A stretch of DNA of 64,000 nucleotides from Massalongia carnosa. Its lineage: Eukaryota. Numbering within the stretch: position 1 is the first letter of the stretch; every line of letters starts with the position of its first letter. The notes under the pieces were generated by a model that searched no databases, had not been told where the DNA came from, and worked only from the letters and a program-made list of their open reading frames with translations. The stretch covers positions 1,116,001 to 1,180,000 of the forward strand of contig OZ287084.1 of the NCBI GenBank assembly GCA_965645245.1, given 5' to 3'. Shown here in pieces: positions 1 to 8,991 of this stretch. The position numbers were made by a program, and so were the translations under genes.

Positions 1-35
1 AACTCCGAAAACATTTTACTATCACATTATTATAT

Positions 36-114
36 ATCGGTCCTCCTCCTTCTACACCATCGGTCCTCCTCCTTCTACACCATCGGTCCTCCTCCTTCTA
101 CACCATCGGTCCTC
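36..114 (+). repeat. 23-bp tandem repeat (ATCGGTCCTCCTCCTTCTACACC), ~3.4 copies, at the LINE 5' end
   Basis: Units start at 36, 59, 82 and 105. Confidence 0.9.
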
Positions 115-296
115 ACCACGGAGACGCCAAAGGCCTCACCGTGGAGCGACCGACAAACATAGATTTGCTCCTATCTTTTCGCATCAAAACAATGCTAATT
201 TAACGCGTTCACACGCGTCGCAGACGTACGTACGGAAGAGGATACGAAGGCCAACCGCCGGGGGGTAGAATGCGCGCGTCCCTGCACCATGCTTCT

Positions 297-1040
297 AAGG
301 GTTCAAGTCCCTTCATGCAGTCATCAGCTGGAAGAAGATGTGGACCAAAGGAGCCGCATCATCCCCCACCCGGGCACAATCGACACGCGTTCTAGCTCCT
401 GAGAGTTCAAGTCTCCCCATGCAGTCATCAGCTGGGATCAACAGAACGCGTAAAGGCACCGGGGCGAATGCTGTCACCTCAAGAAAACTCCATCTCGGAG
501 CAGAATAACAATATCCCATTTAATAGGCCCGGCCTGTTAAATAAAATCGAGGAAAACAAAGAGTCACAAAACACATAGTCATCAATCACACGTTGTACAA
601 AGCACACAGTCACAAACATACAGTCACGAACACACAGTCAAAAAACACACAGTCACAAAACACACAGTCACAAAACACACAGTCACAAAACACACAGTCA
701 CAAAAAACACAATCACAAATCAATAACACGTCCCTGTGAAGGGGGTTCTGCGGGGGCTCGTTAAGACAGATCTGCACCCCGTTAATATCGGCGTACATAT
801 TTTTAGAGGTTCAAGTCCTTTCTAGCAGTCATCAGCTGAAAATGATGCATTTTGACACGGGCATGGTGTGGATTTGACACGGGTAGACCTCGATGGATCA
901 CAAAACGAATGAAAAGAGTTCAGCGGAACTTCGTTGATATTGTTCTCGAAGACCTCGTTAATAAGATTTTCATAGACCTCGTTAACAACGTTCAGTCATA
1001 CTCTTAAAGGTTCAAGTCTTTTCATGCAGTCATCGGCTGA
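297..1040 (+). repeat. Four dispersed ~33-bp modules: T-arm-like hairpin (loop TTCAAGT) followed by CATGCAGTCATCAGCTG-like sequence
   Basis: Copies at ~297-330, ~401-433, ~805-838 and ~1006-1039. Confidence 0.85.
563..720 (+). repeat. ~15-bp tandem repeat (CACAGTCACAAAACA) in LINE 5' UTR
   Basis: Near-perfect run at ~605-720 with degenerate copies upstream. Confidence 0.85.
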
Positions 1041-1799
1041 GAGCTAAAGACGTACGACACGGGTCAGCTATGTCTGTCACACGGGTCTCCTTCGTCTACA
1101 ACACGGAGCCCTCCGGCTGAAAGAAATAAAACATATAGACACATAGTGTAGGGTCACACCCTACACGATACAAGGGATTTGGGTTATGAAAACCATCCGA
1201 TTGATGGCTACCGTGAGCAACACGGCCCGAACCGTAGTCGTACCGGGGATGGTGGAGGCAACCTAGTCATCAAATAGGACACCCTTGGGACAAGAAGAGG
1301 GCAATATACGAGGAACCCGTTAATTGATAACAGTCTAGGCCCTGAGCTAATAGACGAATTTGAAACGAGCACCCCTCCGAGTTGTCCTCGACTCGTTTTG
1401 GTTAGTAGGGACGGAAAATCGATACTATACTGCCTGGTCAGGAGCATAGTGGTCGAAATCCCTGCGAGACATGGTAGGTTCATAAACGGGAGACCTTTAT
1501 GAATAACGCGAAGTGGGCGTAAAAAACCCGTGAGGCGTGGTATGCAATGGCGGCCACCGTACGGAGACCGTCTGCATAGCCCGAGAGGACAGTATGCGCA
1601 TGTCGGTGTATATAGAGCAGGGAATGTCTATCTCGCTCGTAACGAGACCCCGTCGGTTCGCCGGCGCATGGGCTACGGCTAGACTCGCCCTTGATATATG
1701 CTTAAGGAGTAAACTGGGTTTGACCTGGGCGAAAGGGACGTCGTTCACCCCAATCGTAGAATTCATCAATAATCTTGGGCCGTAAAACGCACCAGTGAG

Positions 1800-3269
1800 A
1801 TGAACGAAAACTTGGATAAAGACTTCACGAAGGAGAGAGATGTCAACTCTATTTTATCATTCTTAGCCCCGTCCACACCGACACCAAAGGCAACGAAATT
1901 CCCATCGGGTCCATTTTCCACTATCTTGCCGATGCCTTCATTGAACTTAAATATTGGATCAAGCCCACCAATCAAACGAAATAAAAGACGCACATTTGAC
2001 GAACATTCGAGAGATAGCCAAGAAGCGATCAATCGGGCAAATTCAATTGAGCTTCTAAAGTCGGCCAAAAAAGCATTATTGCAATCATTTGTACTGGACC
2101 AAAATCCACAAACGGCTATCGTAATTGACAACGTTAATTCGTTGATTTCGAAAATATCAATCAATTCACAAATATCCTTAGATATGATTAACTATAAAAT
2201 GGGCATAGTACTTGATCAAACTAGTCATCTTTCCCCAAAAACGTCACAACAACAAACGACTCCACTACAGAATGGTCCAAAAATCCAAAAACCTGTTGTT
2301 AAATTGAACGAAAATTCAATTATCGAAAATCAGACCATTCGCAAAGGAGCCACCGGGGTCTCTGGTAACAATGTTAGCACAACCGGTACATGGAGTCAAA
2401 TGCTTGGAAAAGCAACCGAAAACTCCGAAAATTGGACTACTATTCAAAGGAAAAGTTCGAATAATAATTCGAACAAAGTCGATCGATTTGATGCAATCAA
2501 GGTCAGACGACTCGTAATTTCACCGAAAAATCCTGACGCTCAAATCGACTCTATGAAGCTGCGTGATCAAATTAACGAGCTATTAAAAAACGCAAATTTA
2601 AACATCATCGTCAATACTGTTGAAAAGTCCAAAATCGGTCAGAATATCGTTCTCACCACTAGCCCTGACAACAATGCCGAAGAATTGTTGAAAAATAAAT
2701 CTTCATGGGAACACATTTTCGAATCACAAAGAATTCGAAAAGACGAATCCTGGTTTAAAGTCATAGCACACGGAGTAAATATCTCGTTATTCGATAATAA
2801 CATGCAATATTTGCAAACCGAAATCGAAAAATACAATTCGAATATGCAACTATGCGATTTACCAAGATGGCTTGCTCGGGATCGTCAAAACAAAGTCACG
2901 TCGTCGGTAGTTTTGACTTTCAATAATCAAAATCAAGCGTCAAACGCGTTAAGAGGCGTGAATATCGCGGGTAGACATTGTGACACGGAAATATTTGCTT
3001 CCGTTCGTCCAAACACGCAATGTATTAATTGTCAGAAATTTGGACATAAGCATTATCAATGCAAAAGTCCGGCAAAATGCAATATATGCGCACAAAGTCA
3101 TGAAACGCATAATCATGAATGCACAACATGCAAGTCTAAAATCGCATGCGCACATGCAATTCTGAAATGCGTCAATTGCAACAAAAATCATCAATCGAAC
3201 GATATAGGTTGCGAAATGTTTATCTCGCTAAATCCTAGAAAATCGAATGATGAATTAATGCTTGGTTAA
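1800..3269 (+). CDS. LINE ORF1 gag-like nucleic-acid-binding protein (489 aa)
   Basis: C-terminal knuckles CINCQKFGHKHYQC, CNICAQSHETHNHEC and CVNCNKNH; lies directly upstream of ORF2; homologous to ORF1 copies at 46996 and 51037. Confidence 0.9.
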   Translation: MNENLDKDFTKERDVNSILSFLAPSTPTPKATKFPSGPFSTILPMPSLNLNIGSSPPIKRNKRRTFDEHSRDSQEAINRANSIELLKSAKKALLQSFVLDQNPQTAIVIDNVNSLISKISINSQISLDMINYKMGIVLDQTSHLSPKTSQQQTTPLQNGPKIQKPVVKLNENSIIENQTIRKGATGVSGNNVSTTGTWSQMLGKATENSENWTTIQRKSSNNNSNKVDRFDAIKVRRLVISPKNPDAQIDSMKLRDQINELLKNANLNIIVNTVEKSKIGQNIVLTTSPDNNAEELLKNKSSWEHIFESQRIRKDESWFKVIAHGVNISLFDNNMQYLQTEIEKYNSNMQLCDLPRWLARDRQNKVTSSVVLTFNNQNQASNALRGVNIAGRHCDTEIFASVRPNTQCINCQKFGHKHYQCKSPAKCNICAQSHETHNHECTTCKSKIACAHAILKCVNCNKNHQSNDIGCEMFISLNPRKSNDELMLG

Positions 3270-6200
3270 TGGCGGGACAACATTCGTTGACAAATATCGA
3301 AAATACACAAAATGTCAAATTTATTCAACATAATTGTGCAAAGTCAACGAATGCAATGATTTCGTGTCTGGAATATGCAGTATTAAATCGTGTTGATATT
3401 CTTTTATTTCAGGAACCATGGACGCGAGATCAAAAAACAATTTCCCATCCGTCATTCACATGTATTATGCCGAAAATAGCGACTTATCGGCCGAGAGTAG
3501 CTATATTCGTTACAAAATGCAATCCAAAATTACAATACACGCCTAGAACGGATCTTATAAACGATACTGATCTGCAAATTATCGAAATTACAATTGATGA
3601 AGTTCGATAGGTGCAGACCTTTAACCTTTACAATGAAAAAAGTCTAAACGATCGAGAAACATATACAATCGATCGACTTTTAGTTAAATATCAACCTATA
3701 TCAACTGATCAATTTGTCATATGTGGAGATTTCAATGCACATCATAGCTGGTGGAATTCAAAGATTCAAAATGCAATTCGATCAGAAAATCTAGTCAAAT
3801 GGTTAAAATTAAACAAATGTAGTTTGATAAATACGCCTGATCTATATACATTTTTTGCTCATTCAGGAAACTCTTCATCTATTATTGATTTAACATTTGC
3901 AAATTCTAAAATCGAAAACGCAATTACAAATTGGTCAATCGATGAAAACGCAGTCACGGGTTCAGATCATGAAGTTATTCGATTTGAACTTATCGCGTCT
4001 TTCAAGAACTTGACGACACACGCAACCGCATTATCGAATAAATACAACTGCAATAAAGCCGATTGGGATAAATTCGCGAAGTTTCTAGACGAAAATGCAG
4101 TAAACTACGAGTCCCAAATACAAAGTCTATTGAACAATTATCAATTTGATGAATCAGCGTTATATTTGCAAAACGTTATCAAAAACGCGGCTGAAATGTC
4201 TATTCCGAAGACAAAAATATGCGCAAAATCGAAAAATTGGTGGTCGCAAGATTTATCCGGACTTCGAAAAATCATGTGTAGACATCGTCGAGAATGGAAG
4301 AATAATCCGTCCTATTTTAGTCATCAAACATTTAGACATAGTCGAATCGAGTACTTTCATGCAATTCGAAAAGCGAAACAGCGAACTTGGTTGGCTTTCC
4401 TCGAAAACGCAGCGAATAAAGACGTATTTACAGCTTATAAATACACTAAACCGCGCATGTTCGAAAAAATACCTCCTATTCAATATGAAAATAAGTTAAA
4501 TGTTCAATTCGATCACAAATGCGATGCGTTTGTGTCAGCAATGTACACAAAAAACCCGTTCACTGATGATAATATTGAAGATTTAACGAATCAAGACAGC
4601 GAAAATGACAACAATTGGCCGAATTTAACCGAAAATGAATTGCAAAATGCGATTAGTTTGTTTAATCCAAAGAAATCATGTGGGCCTGATACAATCAATT
4701 TCACAATAATTCAAAAATCGTTTCAACCATTGAAAAACGTGTTTTTTACTATTTATTCTAAATTTATACAAATCGGTTATCACCCGTTATGGTGGCGAAC
4801 AGGACTCGGTGCTGTTTTAAAAAAACCTAATAAACCAGACTACTCGCTGCCAAAATCATATCGAATTATTACCTTACTGAATTGTCTTGGTAAAATTGCG
4901 GAGAAAATAGTTGCTAATCGACTAGCCTACCTCGGCGAAAATTCGAGCTTGTTAGATACCGAACAAATGGGCGGACGAAAAAATCATTCTGCAATCGATG
5001 CGGTAATGAACGTCGTTCATGATATCGAAATCGCAAACCGAAACAAAAACGTTTTATCATGTCTATTACTCGATGTCAAAGGAGCATTTGACTTTGTTTC
5101 GATTAATCAATTGTTAAATGTCATGAAAAAGCTGCATTTATCTCGCATAGTTATTCAATGGGTCAAGCATTTTATGACAAAACGATCGATCAATTTGATA
5201 TTCGATGAACACAAAAGTAAAACGTACTATATCGAATCTGGAATTCCACAAGGTTCACCAATTTCGCCAATTCTATTTCTGATTTATATTCGTTACTTAT
5301 TTCCGAAAATACGAATGAAATTCAATGCTCATTCACCTAGCTTTATAGACGATGTTGCAATATATGTCGAAAATAAAACTGCCACACAGAATTGCAAAGA
5401 AATCGAAATTATCGTCAAAACAGCTTTTGATTGGGCCGCAACGAATAATGTCAAATTTGATGACGACAAATCTGAGTTGATTCACTTCGAAAAGTCAAGA
5501 AATGCATCAAAAGACAAAGTGCAATTACCAAACGGGACAATACTAGAACCGAAAAATTCTGTCAAATGGTTAGGAGTCTGGTTAGACCGAAAACTAAATT
5601 ACAAAAAACACGTCGAAACGCGAATTGCTTCTGCAAATCGATCGTTTTTCGCAATTCAAAATTTGATGAAGTCTGAATGGGGACTAAAGCCAACTGCATG
5701 CAGACAGCTCTATTTGTCATGCATTATTCCTATTTCGGACTATGGCTCAGAAATCTGGTATAACGGTCAAAAGAAATATGAAAAGCTATTTCAGAATCTG
5801 CAAAATCGAATGATTCGAAAGATTTTAGGCACATTCAAAACCACGCCTGTTCAGGCGATGGAAATTGAATCGCATATTTTACCAGCCAAGCTACGATTGT
5901 TGATGAAAAATCAAAAATACGCAATTCGATTATTGAAGATTGCCGAAAATAATCCTATTTGTCAAAGAATTCCCAGTAACTATACGGTGAAATTTGAAAA
6001 CATCGGTTTTGACACTAGTTTATGGAACAACAGATATGCTGAATGGAACGAAGACGAGAAAAAATCGAGTAAACCTCATCCTAGTCAGCTTATCCGTATT
6101 CTTCATTCCGTTTCGGATATAGTTCACAAAACTGATGAATTCGAATCAGTAAATAATTTCATCAAACCATGGAAGCCGTCTTGTAAAATCAAGTTCCAAA

Positions 6201-7282
6201 TCGAAAGATCAAAAGAAACAGCAAAGTCAAGTTATTATTCGACTTTATCAAAAATTCAATCAATAAACGCCGATAAATCGCAAATTTTACTCTATACCGA
6301 TGGATCAAAAACCGAGTTTTCAACTTCCGCTGTCACATTTGCACCAATTACGCGAAATTGGAACAATTTCACCGATAACTTCAATCGTTTTATCGAAAAA
6401 GATTGTCTCCTCAAACATCATACGATTTCGAAAAGCTGGAAATTAAACAAACAGTCAAGCGTTAAAAACGCTGAACTGTATGCGATACTACAAGCAATAA
6501 AATGGGCATACAAATTGACAATTGCGAATATTCTCTTCAATTTGGAAAAAACGATTTGGATTTTTTCCGATAGCATAAACGCGATAAACGAAATTCAGAA
6601 CTTGACAAATCATACTTACGCAAAACAAATTCGAAAATTCTCGAAATGCTTATTCGGAAACAATTATCAGGTGGTTCTACAATGGATTCCTGGTCATTCG
6701 AAAATCGTCGAAAATGAAATTGCAGATAAAGCAGCAAAAGCGGGACATAGTCGAATCCTAGTCGAGTCTTCGATAATAACATTTGATTATGTGAAGGGTC
6801 AAATAAATCGAAATATGTTAGCCACATGGGCGAATCAATGGCAACAATGCAAGTCAAAAGGCAAATACTATGAGAAATTCGAAATGCAGCCGGGCAAATC
6901 AAGTTTTTATTATCTGTCGAATAATTGTTCTAAATTAATATTTGCAACTATTATGCAAATGAAATTCGGACACAGTTATTTTCGATCATATCTGCACCGA
7001 TTGAAAGATTATATTTCGTCAAAATGCACAGGGCGCTGCAACGAACGTCAAACGCCAGAACACTTATTGATGAATTGCATACATTATTCAAATGAAATCC
7101 TAAACATGAATCAAAATATCGATACCACAATTACTTTAAAAATTTTGTTTAATACTAGGATCGGAAATAATATTTTGATTAAATTTATTGTTGATAACAA
7201 AATCGCGACTAGAAAATGGATGCTAGGTCAGCTCGATGACGAAAAAATCGAAACGGGAGGTTGGGGAGAGATCGAACAGTAA
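3269..7282 (+). pseudogene. LINE ORF2 (APE endonuclease - RT - RNase H - C-terminal Cys/His motif) with one in-frame TAG at 3608-3610
   Basis: APE motifs QHNCAK, FQEP, GDFNAHH, IDLTF, GSDH; RT motifs LDVKGAFD, GIPQGSPISP, FIDD; RNase H motifs YTDGS, AEL, FSDS, WIPGH, NEIAD. Other copies have Lys where this one has TAG. Confidence 0.92.
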
Positions 7283-7464
7283 AATTAGAAATGATTTCTG
7301 CTGGAATATTTACGAGCTTTACAAAAACAAATTTTAAAATCGATATTTCGATTACTAAAGGTTGTTACTAACACGGAGTAAAAACGGGGCAATATTGACG
7401 ATACATAGTTGGGTTATAAAGGGTTGATTTATTTGTAAAATAAAACCATATCTTAAAATAGTTT

Positions 7465-7514
7465 AGTGTCATAACCTTAGGTTGAATACACTTAATGAAT
7501 AAATAAATAAAAAA
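7465..7514 (+). other. Conserved LINE 3'-terminal stem-loop plus tail
   Basis: AGTGT-CAT-AACC-TTA-GGTT-GAAT-ACACT followed by TAATGAATAAA; the same motif closes every LINE 3' end in the window. Confidence 0.7.
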
Positions 7515-8991
7515 TGAACTCCGAAAAATTATGTCAAGACATCGTCGAGAATGGAAGAATTATTCCTCCGATTTTAGTCATAGAACCTTTAAACATAGCC
7601 GAATCGAATATTTTCATGCAATTCGAAAAGCAAAACAACAAACTTGGTTGACTTTTCTAGAAAATGCAGCGAATAAAGACGTATTTACAGCGTATAAATA
7701 CACTAAACCGCGAATATTCAAAAAAATACCACCCAATTCAATATGAAAATAAATTAAATGTTCAATTCGATAACAAATGCGATGCATTTCTTGCAGCTAT
7801 GTACACAAAAAACCTAATTATAGACGATAATGTCGAAGACTTATCGAATCAAGACAACGAAGATGACAATAATTGGCCGGATTTGACCGAAAACGAGTTG
7901 CAAAATGCGATTAGTTTGTTTAATCCGAAAAAAGCATGTGGCCCTGATGCAATCAACTTTACAATTGTTCAAAAATCGTTTCAATCGTTGAAAAACGTGT
8001 TTTTTATGATTTATTCAAAATTCATTCAAACCGGTTATCATCCGTTATGCTGGCGGACAGGACTCGGTGCAGTTTTGAAAAAACCTAATAAATCAGATTA
8101 TTCGCTGCCAAAATCATATCGGATTATCACTTTACTAAACTGTCTTGGTAAAATTGCTGAGAAAATCGTTGCAAATCGCCTTGCCTACTTCGGCGAAAAT
8201 TCGAATTTATTAGACATCGAACAGATGGGCGGACGCAAAAATCACTCTGCAATTGACGCAGTAATGACCGTCGTTCATGATATCGAAATAGCAAACCGAA
8301 AAAAGAACGTTTTATCATGTTTATTACTCGACATCAAAGGCGCATTTGACTTTGTATCGATTAATCAGCTGTTAAATGTCATGAAAAATCTCAAATTATC
8401 TCGCATAGTTATTCAATGGGTCAAAAAATTTATGACAAAACGATCGGTCAATCTAATATTCGATGAAAATAAAAGCAAAACCTATTATGTCGAATCAGGA
8501 ATTCCAAAAGGCTCACCTATTTCGCCTATATTATTTTCGATCTACATTCGTCACTTATTTCCGAAAGTACGAATGAAATTCAATGCACATTCTCCTAGTT
8601 TTATAGACGATATTGCAATATATGTCGAAAATAAAACTGCAAAACAGATTTGCAAAGAAATCGAAATCATAGTAAAAACTGCATTTGATTGGGCCGCATC
8701 GAATAATGTCAAATTTGATGACGAAAAATCCGAACTGATTCACTTCGAAAAGACAAGAAATGCATCGAAAGACACACTGCAATTACCAAACGGAACTATA
8801 CTGGAACCGAAAAATGTAGTCAAATGGTTGGGAATCTGGCTAGATCGAAAACTGAATTACAAAAAACACGTCGAAACTCGAATTTCTTCTGCAAATCTTA
8901 TTTGTAAAATAAAACCATATCTTAAAATAGTTTAGTATCATAACCTTAGGTTGAATACACTTAATGAATAAATAAAATAAAATAAAAAAAA
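7515..8991 (+). mobile_element. LINE (subfamily B) ORF2 RT fragment, target of A1; jumps at 8897/8898 directly to a ~94-bp LINE 3' tail
   Basis: ORFs 7531-7746 and 7664-8935 are frameshifted RT sequence; after ETRISSAN the sequence becomes 3' UTR plus A-rich tail. Confidence 0.85.

Follow-up and report, generated by a model that had tools for sequence, protein, structure and literature searches.

A fungal non-coding RNA with a group I-like core, joined at its terminal G to changing LINE partners in Massalongia carnosa

The leader and the LINE that follows it

The window, by which the whole analysed stretch of 64,000 nucleotides from Massalongia carnosa is meant (contig OZ287084.1, positions 1,116,001 to 1,180,000), begins with an insertion bordered by TSDs, in which a long RNA with conserved structured domains, the leader, precedes a LINE without its own start (Table 1). 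The ORF2 of this captured LINE encodes endonuclease, RT and RNase H, with an in-frame stop at 3608-3610, and agrees in this domain composition with the Tad1 clade, as judged from the ORF2 domains. Downstream, window 7661-59072 is composed of nested LINE, chromoviral Gypsy and Tc1/pogo-type pieces, and many leader copies are found in such blocks.

Table 1. Features of the insertion, in window coordinates
Feature	Positions	Strand	Remarks
Left TSD	1-11	+	13 nt with two bases before the window; repeated at 7517-7527
5' flank from chimeric source locus	12-35	+	G000:C1, about 3.287-3.289 Mb; same flank at L019
Non-coding leader RNA, whole	36-1866	+	28 AUGs; no ORF of 150 aa within
23-nt pyrimidine-rich tandem repeat	36-114	+	RNA 5' end; 1 to 25 units in other copies
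Module 1	292-334	+	P1 292-295/331-334, U296, P2 (T-arm) 297-301/309-313, lone pair C314-G317, P3 318-321/327-330
Module 2	396-438	+	Fold as module 1
15-nt tandem repeat spacer	540-720	+	Number variable
Two nested outer helices around module 3	757-883	+	Motif B (YYYGUUAA ... RACACRGG); by eye
Module 3	800-842	+	
Two nested motif-B helices around module 4	954-1085	+	By eye
Module 4	1001-1043	+	
Domain II, conserved structured domain	1147-1292	+	15 sequences, 44 pairs, 23 with two-sided change
Candidate internal guide	1396-1404	+	GGU 1400-1402, complementary to target A^CC; putative
Domain III, group I-like core	1405-1714	+	P2-like 1405-1465; P3 1468-1473/1599-1604; P4-like 1506-1509/1535-1538
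Domain III, further helices	1405-1714	+	P6-like 1539-1580; P7-like 1592-1596/1710-1714; P8 1605-1612/1695-1702; J8/7 1703-1709
3' domain with terminal G1866	1715-1866	+	Closed by P9.0-like helix (1715-1719 with 1860-1865)
Leader/LINE joint	1866-1867	+	Parent LINE's own 5' UTR and first 28 nt of ORF1 absent
Captured LINE	1867-7514	+	ORF1 remnant to 3269; ORF2 about 3272-7282; A-rich tail
Right TSD	7517-7527	+	

Window 36-1866 is a non-coding RNA fused to a LINE at 1866/1867 and not a LINE 5' UTR. The original prediction, by which the LINE carries tRNA-like modules in a 5' UTR of its own, was not borne out, as the sister LINE family of the genome possesses neither the modules (0 matches in 18 loci) nor domains II and III and the RNA carrying them is fused to LINE RNA at a variety of positions. 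The leader is present in at least 64 copies in the genome, counted as 64 exact copies of its end, and also occurs in other fungi. Metagenome loci share domains II (1147-1292) and III (1396-1866) with the window, their ORF2 pieces being only 24-40% identical to that of the window, and the alignment downstream of domain III has a single end point beyond which the copies diverge. In the sister LINE family, the 5' UTR proper (L058:3063-3102 and 2926-2974) contains a loop-E-like hairpin weakly matching Rfam RT-14 (26.6 bits, below the cut-off of 48.1) as well as long near-perfect hairpins.

Elements carry two to five modules at varying places and single copies such as L001, which lacks window 198-469 with modules 1 and 2, do without some of them, so that the modules are to be regarded as accessory. 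Domain II is missing from L191 and L192, which lack window 1117-1281. In L095 (3300-3900) and related JAABU loci a second, diverged domain II together with the 5' two thirds of domain III is located upstream of the modules.

Structure of the T-arm modules

Four T-loop modules, as originally proposed, are present in the leader with TTCAAGT loops at 302-308, 406-412, 810-816 and 1011-1017; the T-loop pattern has four exact matches in the window, shuffles with three mismatches allowed giving an average of 0.81. The stems could be retained as first described except for module 2, whose stem (401-405/413-417) comprises 5 bp, one of them an A·C mismatch; the block downstream was found again, as were the GACACG(G/C)G words at 381, 854, 876 and 1056. 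While the T-arm hairpin itself stands, the enclosing helix P1 and a third helix, P3, had been overlooked, and each module is a 43-nt three-way junction, larger than initially supposed, in which P1 is followed by a single U, the T-arm hairpin (loop UUCAAGU), a C-N-N-G turn and P3, whose loop has 5 nt. The hairpin has the 5-bp stem, G-C closing pair and 7-nt UUCRA loop of a T-arm, and the module pattern occurs 242 times in the genome and 0 times in the reversed control. In the motif-B outer helices a C-G to U-A swap was noted by eye among metagenome copies, and an Rfam scan of window 1-1800 and eight metagenome loci returned nothing relevant. ACGCGT/CGCG words at 204-220, 273-280, 384-390 and 445-451, close to the 5' end of the leader, resemble what we take to be fungal cell-cycle boxes and are a possible internal promoter; some of them also pair around modules 1 and 2.

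With a strict module pattern, 37 stretches in 11 sequence clusters were obtained from metagenome contigs, fungal genes adjoining one of the clusters. A search of 35 loci with a model of the four window modules yielded 99 matches, among which 96 have E < 1e-4. Removal of near-duplicates from 49 ungapped sequences of the window and the metagenome contigs, with one member of the heavily mutated JAABU family kept, left 35 cores, in which 96.3% of cells are paired and 10 of 14 pairs have two-sided changes. All three helices covary, with a score equalled by 0 of 500 shuffles and slid controls at 39-65%. The closing pair is G-C in 35/35 and P2 cells are 97% paired, the invariance of the loop being partly built in by the search pattern. 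In a stricter set (n=32), 31 G·U stand against 5 A·C on the sense strand, a bias whose p-value is only a guide because the copies are related. Covariation in three helices and the sense-strand preference for G·U argue that selection acts on RNA, and the proposal of an RNA structure, one of several made for these modules, was thereby borne out. The test proposed with it, covariation within the genome, is powerless because the copies are 92-98% alike, with isolated single changes only. Single-sequence folding of the modules is not significant (core z -0.11 to 0.48). Exact module patterns had no match in prokaryote genomes or viral contigs. Five pattern matches in viral contigs were due to chance.

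Further candidate structures were discarded. An early version of P3 with an 8-nt loop was dropped, as two L107 copies show a C-G to G-C swap, and an anticodon mimic in the P3 loop was given up in view of the variability of CAU. For a hammerhead ribozyme on the minus strand, which is defined by CUGANGA and GAAA cores with three stems, the GAAA positions turned out to be free stem positions, the G·U bias favours the plus strand and Rfam gave no match. Twister-sister, whose hallmark we take to be a T-loop hairpin at a fixed distance from a conserved internal loop, fails as the outer loop is missing or variably distant, no Rfam match was obtained and the 5' ends do not lie at the modules. Telomerase CR4/5, with a 4-bp stem and a 5-nt loop in the available text of PMC4993307, resembles P3 only and matched in no other feature.

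At the DNA level, the modules had been thought to be B boxes for TFIIIC, acting as promoter or chromatin barrier, and indeed GTTCAAGTC is present in all four, which match what we take to be the B-box consensus; the copies, moreover, lie mostly in transposon-dense blocks, where a barrier could help. The promoter found no support, as the best A box upstream of any module has 1-2 mismatches of 7 and is equalled by 95% of random windows, seven runs of at least four T lie inside the leader transcript and the 5' ends of the copies map to the tandem repeat, which precedes module 1 by about 250 nt. No tRNA cloverleaf was recognized either, ARAGORN finding 0 genes. P1 and P3, which covary, lie outside the B box, and the G·U bias concerns one strand only. 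Three copies (L035, L036, L048) also have an extra G between TSD and element, which may be a copied cap or, alternatively, a G added by group I chemistry. As an explanation of the modules the DNA-level reading is thus very improbable; TFIIIC binding as a second role beside that of the RNA has better, if still rather poor, prospects.

Joints, targets and exchange of partners

In 41/41 joints first examined the leader stops at window position 1866, with G in 40, and the following 20-mers differ in all 41; 18 metagenome joints, inspected by eye, have the same fixed end. The partners are in 36/40 cases sense-strand pieces of LINE ORFs from several families, 21-98% identical to the proteins of the window. 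Parents could be located for 34 of the 41 joints of this first set and 20 of 26 hold-out joints, none being found for six hold-out partners. Both sets are cut mostly at A^CC, with C at +1 in 30/41 and 18/26, C at +2 in 31/41 and 20/26 and A at -1 in 24/34 and 16/20 for first and hold-out set respectively; across all parents, A precedes the cut in 40/54 and U in 7. Where +1 is not C in the hold-out set, it is the parent's own letter (6/6), in most cases a U, in keeping with G·U pairing. Of the 54 joints with a parent, 50 are free of microhomology; the window's own joint (2 nt) is one of the exceptions.

A longer consensus, A^CCYG, was abandoned, the +3 Y/+4 G preference of the first set not having been replicated in the hold-out set, and the idea of a spliceosomal acceptor at the leader 3' end was discarded, since the last letters of other families are GG. 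Reuse of a joint at distinct loci was seen twice (L190 with L188/L189; L194 with L024), which implies that some copies are recopied intact or that hot spots exist; three pairs of copies with a common joint go back to segmental duplication and are not independent events.

The source locus (L018/L019 and L155) is itself chimeric: its partner measures 590 nt, a 16-nt TSD directly adjoins either end, and in L019 the last 16 nt of the shared 5' flank are the TSD of that insertion. In the window, L030 and L032 the flank of this locus lies within the TSDs of the respective insertion, and the partners differ; part of the flank is also seen in L034 and L047, for which no TSDs were found. Variant 712A is common to the window, L030 and L032, with 1362G in addition in the window and L030, the variants nesting as expected for a long-lived source; the TSD call is somewhat weakened by the low complexity of the flank. 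Seven copies of a second lineage, whose source was not found, have one common flank and seven partners. Offspring of one chimeric source with different partners indicate that the partner is exchanged between rounds, so that a chimera transcript can shed its partner at the terminal G and acquire a new one. Exact removal of the old partner after this G is required in any model.

Domain III and the proposed joining of leader and LINE RNA

The 3' 470 nt of the leader fold like a group I intron core. In 13 sequences the 81 pairs of domain III have 96.8% of cells paired and 36 pairs with two-sided change, a covariation reached by 0/500 shuffles, with slid controls at 32-46% and the structure derived from the same alignment, which favours it over these controls. 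P3, P4, P6 and P8 follow each other in the order of group I helices, two-sided pairs amounting to one in P3, four in P8 and none in the P4-like helix, while the P7-like helix has only 3-4 of 5 pairs, of which the three constant ones are invariant and hence do not covary; G1592-C1714, at the G-binding position of the putative P3-P7 pseudoknot, is present in 13/13. J3/4 and J6/7 contain extra hairpins. Bases -3 to -7 before the terminal G, which ends 40/41 joints, pair with the five bases that follow the P7-like strand, and this P9.0-like helix covaries across families (G-C/C-G and G-C/A-U swaps; pairing in 30/32 cells against 12/24 to 20/32 in slid controls, which draw on 8 distinct types whose ends were set by eye). 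Although weakest in the family of the window (3/5 in the common register), it is the strongest link of domain III to a group I core. One descriptor fits both an rDNA intron of the genome and domain III in 5/5 copies with equal junction lengths, and is loose, as 10/40 and 1/40 shuffles and 1/16 natural pieces fit too.

Group I introns react at a U·G pair in P1. A P1 of this kind was not found, the base at -1 of the target being A, and the proposed guide ranked only eighth in a guide scan. Domain III is retained in retrotransposed copies, not excised with ligation of exons, and it had no match to RF00028 and none in phage records. Incomplete P7, extra hairpins, A for U, retention and the missing RF00028 match are the reason why domain III is said to work like a group I intron core, as its fold suggests, and is not filed as a member.

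Canonical group I introns are encoded on contig G000:C25 (L112-L114), which is probably mitochondrial. The LSU rDNA of the genome contains three introns (L115:1039-1294, about 1443-1760, about 425-635; minus strand), one at a position which we take to be of the L2066 type, and the IE-like intron in L115 is absent among the RF00028 matches. In L081, L092 and L095 the P8 extension has a conserved purine-rich insert that may resemble the T-loop region of RNase P RNA. PMC5640933 reports fungal group I cores that had escaped annotation, in its available text without a look at their ends, so that overlap with domain III is possible.

What the genomes record is a fixed terminal G, A^CC targets, exchange of partners, LINE-type insertion with TSDs and a conserved fold. 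The reading we prefer, to which we assign a probability of about 0.55, is that a ribozyme derived from a group I intron attaches itself to LINE RNAs and is carried along in their retrotransposition, the catalysis being deduced from fold and joints. The leader is, on the genomic evidence, transcribed from chimeric insertions and loses the old partner exactly after the terminal G; the release would proceed as in 3' splice-site hydrolysis. The freed G would sit in the P7-like pocket, held by the P9.0-like helix, while the LINE target pairs with GGU (1400-1402) just 5' of P2, and a single transesterification, similar to step one of reverse splicing, would place the leader onto the LINE 3' piece including its tail. 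The chimera would then be reverse-transcribed continuously through the joint and inserted by the LINE machinery with a TSD, and the capture of LINE RNA would sidestep the preference of LINEs for their own RNA. Release of the old partner, the GGU-guided attack by the terminal G and continuous reverse transcription through the joint are the steps that we infer, with the same slight leaning in their favour. The modules would be accessory docking elements and not the catalyst. Tentatively, and with somewhat less than even confidence, they may dock the RNA on a tRNA-recognising host factor or the translating ribosome, where LINE mRNA and ORF2p are met, a proposal by analogy that is the least supported step of the mechanism.

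In the published model for MINE elements the joint is made in cDNA instead: the LINE RT would stall near A^CC and jump to the processed leader 3' end, G1866, domain III only making or protecting this end. Such template jumping, which we consider unlikely, was proposed for WEIRD-MGL chimeras, likewise with a CC-containing site motif and no microhomology as far as the available text goes (PMC2104539), and fits the fixed end and 5'-truncated leaders, but leaves unexplained why RTs from several LINE families that are unrelated to each other should all stop at a single trinucleotide, why C gives way to U at +1/+2 and why a covarying helix links the terminal G to the P7-like site, and still requires the exact removal of the old partner. 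A shade less probable again is joining by a host tRNA ligase as for U6/L1, between a cyclic phosphate of the leader and the 5'-OH of a LINE fragment, the T-arm modules recruiting tRNA-processing enzymes. It would give the modules a direct job, is compatible with a fixed end without microhomology and has a precedent in RtcB, which according to the available text of PMC6789731 joins U6 to L1 RNA before retrotransposition; yet a separate A^CC-specific nuclease would be required, the group I-like core and the P9.0-like helix stay unexplained, and the 3'-OH produced by group I chemistry, as given in the accessible part of PMC3984707, counts against it. That one LINE family recruited the leader as its 5' UTR or IRES, and short copies are internal deletions, is hardly credible: both ORFs are kept in L134, L157 and L162, and in the window the ATG at 1800 is in frame with ORF1, whereas the same leader end is found fused, at dozens of sites, to LINE families that are unrelated, and the parent LINEs possess UTRs of their own, which contradicts it as a general account. 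This ATG lies inside the 3' domain of the leader (1800-1866), and a fusion protein with the captured ORF1 is possible.

The closest known system is MINE/WEIRD of Magnaporthe. As described in the available text of PMC2104539, it has in common with the chimeras reported here a full-length non-coding RNA of 1-2 kb 5' of a variably truncated LINE, with TSDs, a short CC-containing site motif without microhomology, reused sites and no solo copy found, the search for a solo gene having been non-exhaustive in our case. In the window, likewise, a complete non-coding RNA precedes a truncated LINE in the same orientation and within a TSD. For WEIRD neither structure nor homologues are reported in that text, where it is called not a transposable element, GCC is given upstream of the joint and RT switching is invoked (PMC2104539). 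Here, by contrast, chimeric loci act as sources and the RNA is conserved across fungi. Three published WEIRD primers match the leader at best at 14/20 positions, which is uninformative on homology. New are the RNA family and the exchange of partners, the chimeric architecture being already known from MINE. We further consider it conceivable, with odds slightly against it, that the leader belongs to a widespread fungal ribozyme parasite, a non-splicing group I intron that grafts itself by its terminal G onto any LINE mRNA and swaps its partner every round, that the WEIRD RNA is the same thing and that the modules steer it to ribosomes translating LINE RNA. It would in that case be a natural 5'-replacement ribozyme and provide the first genomic record of group I reverse-splicing chemistry combined with reverse transcription as a routine means of spread.

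With nuclear group IE introns, the class of L2066-type introns in the accessible part of PMC9548176, the leader shares order and spacing of P3, P4, P6, P7 and P8, a 2-nt J7/3, a 7-nt J8/7, a G-C pair at the putative G site, the terminal G and a short P5 (compared with the available text of PMC9548176 and PMC3984707 and with the rDNA intron in L115). Unlike them, it has no 5' exon or P1 with U·G, an incomplete P7 and extra hairpins, is never spliced out, lies outside rDNA and is preceded by 1.35 kb of upstream domains. GIR1, the lariat-capping ribozyme, is a group I-derived core that no longer splices and caps a downstream mRNA; the leader is similar in having such a core without splicing and differs in that no P15 was found and the Rfam scans gave no RF01807-type match. 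In U6/L1 chimeras a full small RNA is likewise joined at the RNA level to a LINE 3' piece and then retrotransposed, but by a protein ligase, from a host snRNA gene and without self-propagation, as stated in the accessible part of PMC6789731. For the modules, box B of Brome mosaic virus, a T-loop mimic serving as an RNA cis signal for template recruitment in the available text of PMC4083346, is the best precedent, although it is a viral hairpin without a repeated three-way junction and no sequence relation is claimed. Similar to tRNA-derived SINEs the leader is non-autonomous, LINE-dependent and equipped with a T-arm, but it has no A box, cloverleaf or 3' tail of its own, measures 1.8 kb and captures LINE RNA covalently. 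A literature search with most subscription papers outside its scope retrieved no report of the leader fold or of ribozyme capture of LINE RNA.

If the preferred reading, capture by a ribozyme, is true, a non-coding RNA would spread through genomes in a new manner, and covalent capture of LINE RNA would join SINE mimicry and passive chimeras as a third route of non-autonomous retrotransposition. It would supply a mechanism for MINE/WEIRD, open since 2005-2007. The spread of group I introns by reverse splicing and reverse transcription was, by the accessible part of PMC3984707, without direct experimental evidence in 2014; the leader, with at least 64 natural products in one genome, offers a compact test system. 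Should catalysis fail, three undescribed RNA folds and the exchange of partners at a fixed G stand. As most captures remove ORF1 or part of ORF2, the leader would also act as a LINE suppressor. Partners without a sense LINE match are found in L159, L173, L181, L081 and L102, possibly captured cellular RNAs or a solo locus.
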